From the NCBI RefSeq assembly GCF_057098645.1, contig NZ_CM169472.1: 64,000 bases of DNA. One strand, 5' to 3'. The position numbers and the translations under genes were made by a program. How positions within the stretch are numbered: the first letter of the stretch is position 1; each line of letters opens with the position of its first letter. The notes under the pieces are model-generated. The model was given only the letters and a program-made list of their open reading frames with translations, was not told the origin of the DNA and did not search any database. Shown in pieces: positions 1,897 to 2,380 of this stretch.

Positions 1897-2008
1897 ATTC
1901 ACTATCGCCACTTTTATTGGCGATGAAAAGATGTTTCGTGAAGCCGTCGACGCTTATAAAAAATGGATATTAATGCTGAAACTGAGATCAAGCAAAAGCA
2001 TTCACTAA
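1865..2008 (+). CDS. kil: lambda Kil-like protein (47 aa), host cell division inhibitor
   Basis: [47 protein letters not shown] matches lambda Kil; overlaps cIII end as in lambda. Confidence 0.8.
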
Positions 2009-2083
2009 CCCCATTTCCTGTTTTCCTAATCAGCCTGGCATTTCGCGGGCGATATTTTCACAGCCATTTTCAGGAGTTCAGCC

Positions 2084-2380
2084 ATGAACGCTTATTACAT
2101 TCAGGATCGTCTTGAGGCTCAGAGCTGGGCGCGTCACTACCAGCAGATCGCCCGTGAAGAGAAAGAGGCAGAACTGGCAGACGACATGGAAAAAGGCCTG
2201 CCCCAGCACCTGTTTGAATCGCTATGCATCGATCATTTGCAACGCCACGGGGCCAGCAAAAAAGCCATTACCCGTGCGTTTGATGACGATGTTGAGTTTC
2301 AGGAGCGCATGGCAGAACACATCCGGTACATGGTTGAAACCATTGCTCACCATCAGGTTGATATTGATTCAGAGGTATAA
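2084..2380 (+). CDS. gam: lambda Gam (short form, 98 aa), RecBCD inhibitor
   Basis: [60 protein letters not shown]... matches lambda GamS. Confidence 0.9.

Follow-up and report, generated by a model that had tools for sequence, protein, structure and literature searches.

Does the gam gene of this prophage, like that of phage λ, specify two forms of the Gam protein, or can only the short one be made from it? The λ gene (UniProt P03702) has a long form, GamL, of 138 residues and a short form, GamS, of 98. The two have been described as isoforms "presumably translated from two start sites" (PMC11610958), and structural papers and reviews regard GamL as a real λ isoform (PMC5218532; PMC11610958). 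GamS binds and blocks RecBCD, and when GamS and GamL are expressed from plasmids, both are active and both sensitize cells to quinolones (PMC5218532). The gene discussed here lies near the left end of a 64,000-nucleotide stretch of contig NZ_CM169472.1 (assembly GCF_057098645.1), which we call the window. We hold it very probable that the window gam is a widespread short-only allele, with its start at the ATG at 2084, the AGGAG at 2072–2076 as its Shine–Dalgarno sequence and a 98-residue Gam as its product, and that the ATG at 1963, farther upstream, opens a dead-end ORF.

Positions 1700 to 3850 of the window, on the + strand, carry the left-operon (pL) genes of a lambdoid phage, cIII-kil-gam-bet-exo. 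The features that enter into the argument are the following.

1732–1896, + strand: cIII, 54 residues, the upstream gene of the pL operon, annotated as cIII in homologous records
1865–2008, + strand: kil, 47 residues (MDQTLMAIQ...SKSIH), annotated at the equivalent position in λ, PhiR57_1 and JLK-2012
1963–2115, + strand: 50-codon ORF from an ATG homologous to the GamL start of λ
2027–2029, + strand: TAA that closes the gam frame, 54 nt before its ATG
2065–2070, + strand: site of the allele difference, CATTTT in the window and TA-TTT in λ, from the alignment with λ and 28 distinct leaders
2072–2076, + strand: AGGAG, the Shine–Dalgarno sequence of gam, 7 nt from its ATG
2084–2380, + strand: gam, short form only, 98 residues, putative inhibitor of the host RecBCD nuclease
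2386–3171, + strand: bet, 261 residues, the next gene of the Red operon
3168–3848, + strand: exo, 226 residues, λ exonuclease

The ATG at 1963 is created by Lys-Trp codons of kil (AAA TGG). It lies 121 nt from the gam ATG at 2084, so the two are in different frames, and the ORF that it opens runs to a stop codon at 2113–2115, 30 nt inside gam and one base out of frame with it. A gene for two isoforms would have an in-frame ATG at 120 nt with no stop codon between the two starts; in the window gene the upstream ATG is out of frame, and the gam frame is interrupted by the TAA at 2027–2029. Between this TAA and position 2084 the gam frame contains no ATG, GTG or TTG, which rules out a longer product from an alternative in-frame start. 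Since the upstream ATG is out of frame, and since the gam frame is closed and offers no other start, only the 98-residue form is left. The conclusion that conventional starts allow no other Gam from the window allele is thus supported. A preliminary description of this DNA had given the 121-nt spacing between 1963 and 2084 and the stop at 2113–2115, and had claimed that the short form alone is encoded; all its coordinates agree with ours, and the claim stands.

Is the ATG at 1963 likely to be used at all? The predicted duplex of the AGGAG at 2072–2076 with the 3′ end of 16S rRNA has an energy of −6.9 kcal/mol, equal to that of kil. When the 171 ATGs in positions 1–7000 of the window are ranked by their anti-Shine–Dalgarno duplexes, the gam ATG at 2084 is among the best 10%, and the ATG at 1963, with a predicted +0.4 kcal/mol, is among the weakest 10%. 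Furthermore, the Met of the short form is preceded by CAGGAG or TAGGAG in nearly all the homologues examined, and by GGAGG in PhiR5_2. We propose that ribosomes would start at 2084, served by the AGGAG, and make the 98-residue Gam, and we infer that the ATG at 1963 is not used productively.

The 50-codon ORF found no match in a Pfam search and was, on that ground, rejected as a protein; it is probably not translated to a useful extent. Alternatively, it might be a functional upstream ORF, the translation of which, across the gam ribosome-binding site, would modulate gam expression. Indeed, the ORF overlaps both the gam Shine–Dalgarno sequence and the first 10 gam codons, and it is kept in all seven of the phage records with the 121-nt spacing that were checked. 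This conservation, however, is accounted for by the fact that the ORF overlaps kil and that these phages have diverged very little. The ORF has no Shine–Dalgarno sequence of its own and belongs to no recognized family, and it is missing from leaders that have another gene upstream and yet share the same CATTTT core. A regulatory role for it is, therefore, very unlikely.

The arrangement in λ closely parallels that in the window. In the λ records (OR974322, J02459), gam is annotated at 32816–33232, with 138 residues, overlapping kil at 33187–33330, and the ATG of MDIN... lies 120 nt upstream of the Met of MNAYYIQ..., in frame with it, in an ORF of 138 codons. The layout of the λ gene that the preliminary description had given (138 residues, a start 120 nt upstream, in frame and overlapping kil) agrees with these records. 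The two loci agree in gene order, in Shine–Dalgarno sequence and in the short-form ATG, they have homologous upstream ATGs within kil, and their short forms are 98% identical. The λ leader, however, is one base shorter, which puts the kil-internal ATG in frame with gam and gives the 138-residue ORF, whereas in the window this ATG is out of frame and 98 residues are all that is encoded.

Nucleotide alignment with λ gam, the check that the preliminary description had named, placed the difference in length at positions 2065–2070, where the window reads AGCCATTTTCAGG and λ reads AGCTA-TTTCAGG. The difference is confined to this one spot (window CACAGCCATTTTCAGGAG; λ CACAGCTA-TTTCAGGAG): the C at 2065 of the window is a T in λ, and the window has four T (2067–2070) against three in λ. 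According to the mechanism that we propose, the kil-internal ATG in λ would be in frame with gam by chance, hence the GamL ORF, and the leader of the window, longer by one base (CATTTT against TATTT), would make the same ATG open a dead-end ORF of 50 codons.

The product of the window gene is a full-length member of the Gam family. Its residues 1–98 match positions 1–98 of the 98 in Pfam model PF06064 with E = 3.4e-65 and a score of 216.8 bits (cut-off, 25). The 98-position Pfam model itself aligns to λ residues 41–138; the window protein is 98% identical to this same segment, which is also the segment present in the chains solved in PDB 2uuz, 2uv1 and 5mbv, that is, the short form. The gene sits between kil and bet-exo in the operon order cIII-kil-gam-bet-exo, as expected for the family. 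From the 98% identity to the λ protein studied in PMC5218532, we infer that the window Gam inhibits RecBCD.

Could the shifted frame instead be a mark of decay in a defective prophage, the first step in turning gam into a pseudogene? The part of the window that matches phages extends from position 1 to about 7000–7340, and beyond it lie the dsd genes.

7433–8374, − strand: dsdC, adjoining the prophage arm
8586–9923: dsdX
9941–11269: dsdA

The arm is flanked by IS629 on the left, and it ends at about 7000, beside dsdC, with no integrase or tRNA gene found there: positions 5500–12000 of the window yielded no tRNA gene, and in the ORF listing no integrase was identified between the Red genes and dsdC. 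Given IS629 near position 600 and the lack of an integrase up to dsdC, the prophage may be a never-induced remnant, or it may be unusually organized at its dsd end. Nevertheless, the 98-codon gam ORF is intact, and its product is 100% identical to the Gam proteins of 933W and BP-4795, which are inducible, plaque-forming phages and carry the same leader. The allele is, moreover, older than this prophage. Decay of gam is accordingly a very unlikely explanation.

The prophage arm and its surroundings have some further features. The window begins inside an IS629-type element, of the IS3 family, which abuts the early-left arm of the prophage; the element is on the − strand at 128–525 and ends at about 540–600. 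It includes an orfA of 108 residues (199–525) and an ALIL frameshift pseudoknot (Rfam, 128–244, 120.9 bits). A 156-codon ORF at 670–1140 on the + strand lies between the end of the IS and ea10/ssb (1291–1659). The cIII thermoregulator RNA (Rfam RF01804; 1719–1777, + strand, 88.5 bits) is intact at the translation start of cIII, and this element and the IS3-type ALIL pseudoknot are the only Rfam matches. In the chromosomal part of the window, a segment at about 49920 to 51680 is 95–97% identical to DNA of Morganella phage IME1369_01 and phage RCS47, where it corresponds to a transposase region of IS200/IS605 and to a "putative virulence protein".

How general is the long form among the relatives of λ? 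We compared 80 IMG/VR loci, taken as the top 80 by protein identity, with a Gam 99–100% identical to that of the window, and hence not a random sample. In this set, 30 of the 80 loci have the in-frame, λ-like ATG at −120, seven have an upstream ATG at −121, as in the window, and two have it at −119, with a C run of four bases rather than five. In the remaining 41 of the 80 a different gene lies upstream, and the in-frame start is absent in all but two of these. An in-frame start farther upstream is absent from all six chromosomal homologues (from three Citrobacter genomes, Klebsiella grimontii, Escherichia sp. ESNIH1 and Lelliottia) and from phages PhiR5_2 and phiES15.

These more distant homologues, together with that of phage Dewey, are 37–86% identical to the window protein and have no λ-like N-terminal extension. 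They share with the window a core of 96–98 residues, the same start Met and a Shine–Dalgarno sequence of the CAGGAG type, and their leader is recognizably homologous to that of the window (...CACA[AG]CC...ATTTCAGGAG). In phage Dewey (PQ850600), Gam is annotated with 141 residues, including an in-frame extension of 43 codons whose sequence is unrelated to that of λ; the CAGGAG-ATG at the family-conserved start suggests that this annotation is over-extended. The long form is not a conserved feature of the Gam family.

The same comparison bears on whether translation from the ATG at 1963 might still lead to a long Gam, either through a programmed +1 shift of the ribosome or through slippage of RNA polymerase on the T run. 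If tRNA-Phe, for example, moved from UUU to UUC (2068–2071), the resulting +1 shift at CAU UUU C would restore the λ GamL sequence, and the first codon in the new frame, AGG, is by inspection a rare one. In a shift site of the prfB type, a codon prone to shifting precedes a zero-frame codon that is read slowly, either a stop or a rare codon, and a Shine–Dalgarno-like stimulator lies a few bases upstream. Inspection of the window sequence does not reveal this arrangement: the zero frame reads CAU UUU CAG GAG, with no stop or hungry codon at the shift site (CAG is not a rare codon), and the AGGAG is downstream of that site, whereas a prfB-type stimulator would be a few bases upstream of it. As for slippage, four T are too few for it to be appreciable. 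In addition, the ATG at 1963 has no Shine–Dalgarno sequence, and the upstream ATG is absent from most relatives, so nothing selects for a frameshift device. With no supporting signals by inspection, we rejected both frameshifting and slippage, either of which is extremely improbable here.

Is this leader found elsewhere? The 541-nt kil-gam segment of the window is 100% identical to that of BP-4795 and 99.1–99.4% identical to those of 933W, VT1-Sakai and two Stx2a phages of O157:H7. The spacing of 121 nt recurs in BP-4795, 933W, VT1-Sakai, PhiR57_1, 2B8 and an Stx1a phage, and every gene-annotated record of these phages, including those of the first three, gives a Gam of 98 residues. The Stx phages BP-4795 (AJ556162), 933W (AF125520) and VT1-Sakai (AP000400) thus have the CATTTT leader, the spacing and the 98-residue Gam of the window. 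The feature itself is without difference between them and the window; only the setting distinguishes the window copy, whose prophage arm adjoins dsdC and has an IS629 copy on the left.

The frequency of the two alleles was estimated with a 65-nt query centered on the site, the counts being of exact matches over 64–65 nt. The 65-nt window allele was present in 1424 complete E. coli genome records and the λ 64-mer in 745, with about 900 E. coli records that carry other variants falling outside both counts. Among GenBank phage records, exact matches numbered 79 for the window allele and 81 for the λ allele. One O157:H7 chromosome contains both alleles, in different prophages, and PGAP annotates 98 residues for both. 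The short-only gam leader is, then, a common natural allele, already known and annotated: published phage genomes with the identical sequence have been annotated with a 98-residue Gam since 1999–2004, and present-day pipelines annotate it correctly.

The suspicion, voiced in the preliminary description, that the extra T at 2067–2070 is a homopolymer error of sequencing or assembly, and that the true sequence encodes the 138-residue form, is practically untenable, for although the difference does fall in a short T run, a place where some platforms miscount, this run is only four long, the indel goes together with a C/T substitution two bases before it, and the prevalence of the identical 65-nt stretch in independent records, namely those 1424 of E. 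coli and 79 of phages, from many laboratories and platforms and including the Sanger-era 933W and VT1-Sakai, excludes such an error.

Between kil and gam lie 75 nt that have the character of a non-coding leader. A comparison of 97 loci, with 28 distinct leaders among them, showed that its length varies at two homopolymer runs: a C run of 4, 5 or 6 bases downstream of the kil stop codon, and a T run with the variants TATTT, CATTTT and CATATTT. The variants of the two runs occur in recombinant combinations. In this leader a consensus pattern scan found the following element.

2033–2060, + strand: terminator-like hairpin, GCCTG-GCATTTCG-CGGGC (8-nt loop, N8), followed by GATATTTTCA

This hairpin is inside the segment that in λ encodes GamL residues 24–33. 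The scan, in which the site comprised 2033–2050 plus GATATTTTCA, gave two terminator sites against 0.9 expected in shuffled sequences. The hairpin appears in the minimum free energy folds of λ-type leaders, and an equivalent place in the phiES15 and Citrobacter-type leaders also has one; the U tract is missing from the distant, Citrobacter-type leaders. Its fold, with z = −0.78, is not thermodynamically exceptional, and the alignment fold has one covarying pair; for these two reasons we rejected it as a well-supported structured element. The Rfam search gave no family match between kil and gam, and a literature search on tL2 terminators and ribosome profiling returned nothing relevant. The tL2 terminator cluster of λ maps between bet and ral, and the hairpin at 2033–2060 may, we presume, correspond to one of these terminators.

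Which of the two states came first? The sequence of the distant, Citrobacter- and Dewey-type leaders is CACAACCAAATTTCAGGAG, with CC and a longer A/T run, like the window, and the λ leader has CT and the shortest A/T run. The features that the distant leaders share with the window make loss of a base in λ likelier than a gain in the window. The preliminary description had spoken of an extra base; it was right as to the difference in length, and the distant leaders speak against the window as the one that gained. Parsimony, applied to a few characters, suggests that the in-frame state of λ is derived. It is tempting to go further and to propose that GamL is a lineage-restricted by-product of the loss of one base from the leader, that the 98-residue protein is the product of the family as a whole, that the leader, with its hairpin and Shine–Dalgarno sequence, is regulatory, and that the window allele is the older one; to this fuller account we would give an even chance. 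If it is true, the textbook "two isoforms of Gam" would be limited to λ and its closest relatives.

What weight, then, should be given to the 40-residue extension of λ? It cannot be made from the window allele, and it would appear to be dispensable. The short-only leader represents about half of the gam alleles in GenBank phages and is the commoner one in E. coli prophages, and in none of these can the long form be encoded. Such allele frequencies favor GamS as the reference product and argue against much biological weight for the extension. On the other side, the effect of GamL in K. pneumoniae was somewhat larger than that of GamS in some strains (PMC5218532), and for that reason the extension is perhaps not wholly neutral.

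Two observations concern the neighboring kil gene and the sources of the kil-gam sequences. In some prophages the kil stop codon TAA is replaced by TAC (the locus L105, from E. coli O157:H7 TR01, and the leaders u9, u11, u12 and u20); in L105, the one annotated example, Kil has 54 residues and ends at the next stop codon, 54 nt before gam. Finally, two contigs of about 4 kb from metagenome-assembled genomes (L102 and L103), labeled Lachnospiraceae and Segatella copri, carry a λ-type kil-gam with 96–100% protein identity, and they are most likely mis-binned DNA of E. coli phages.
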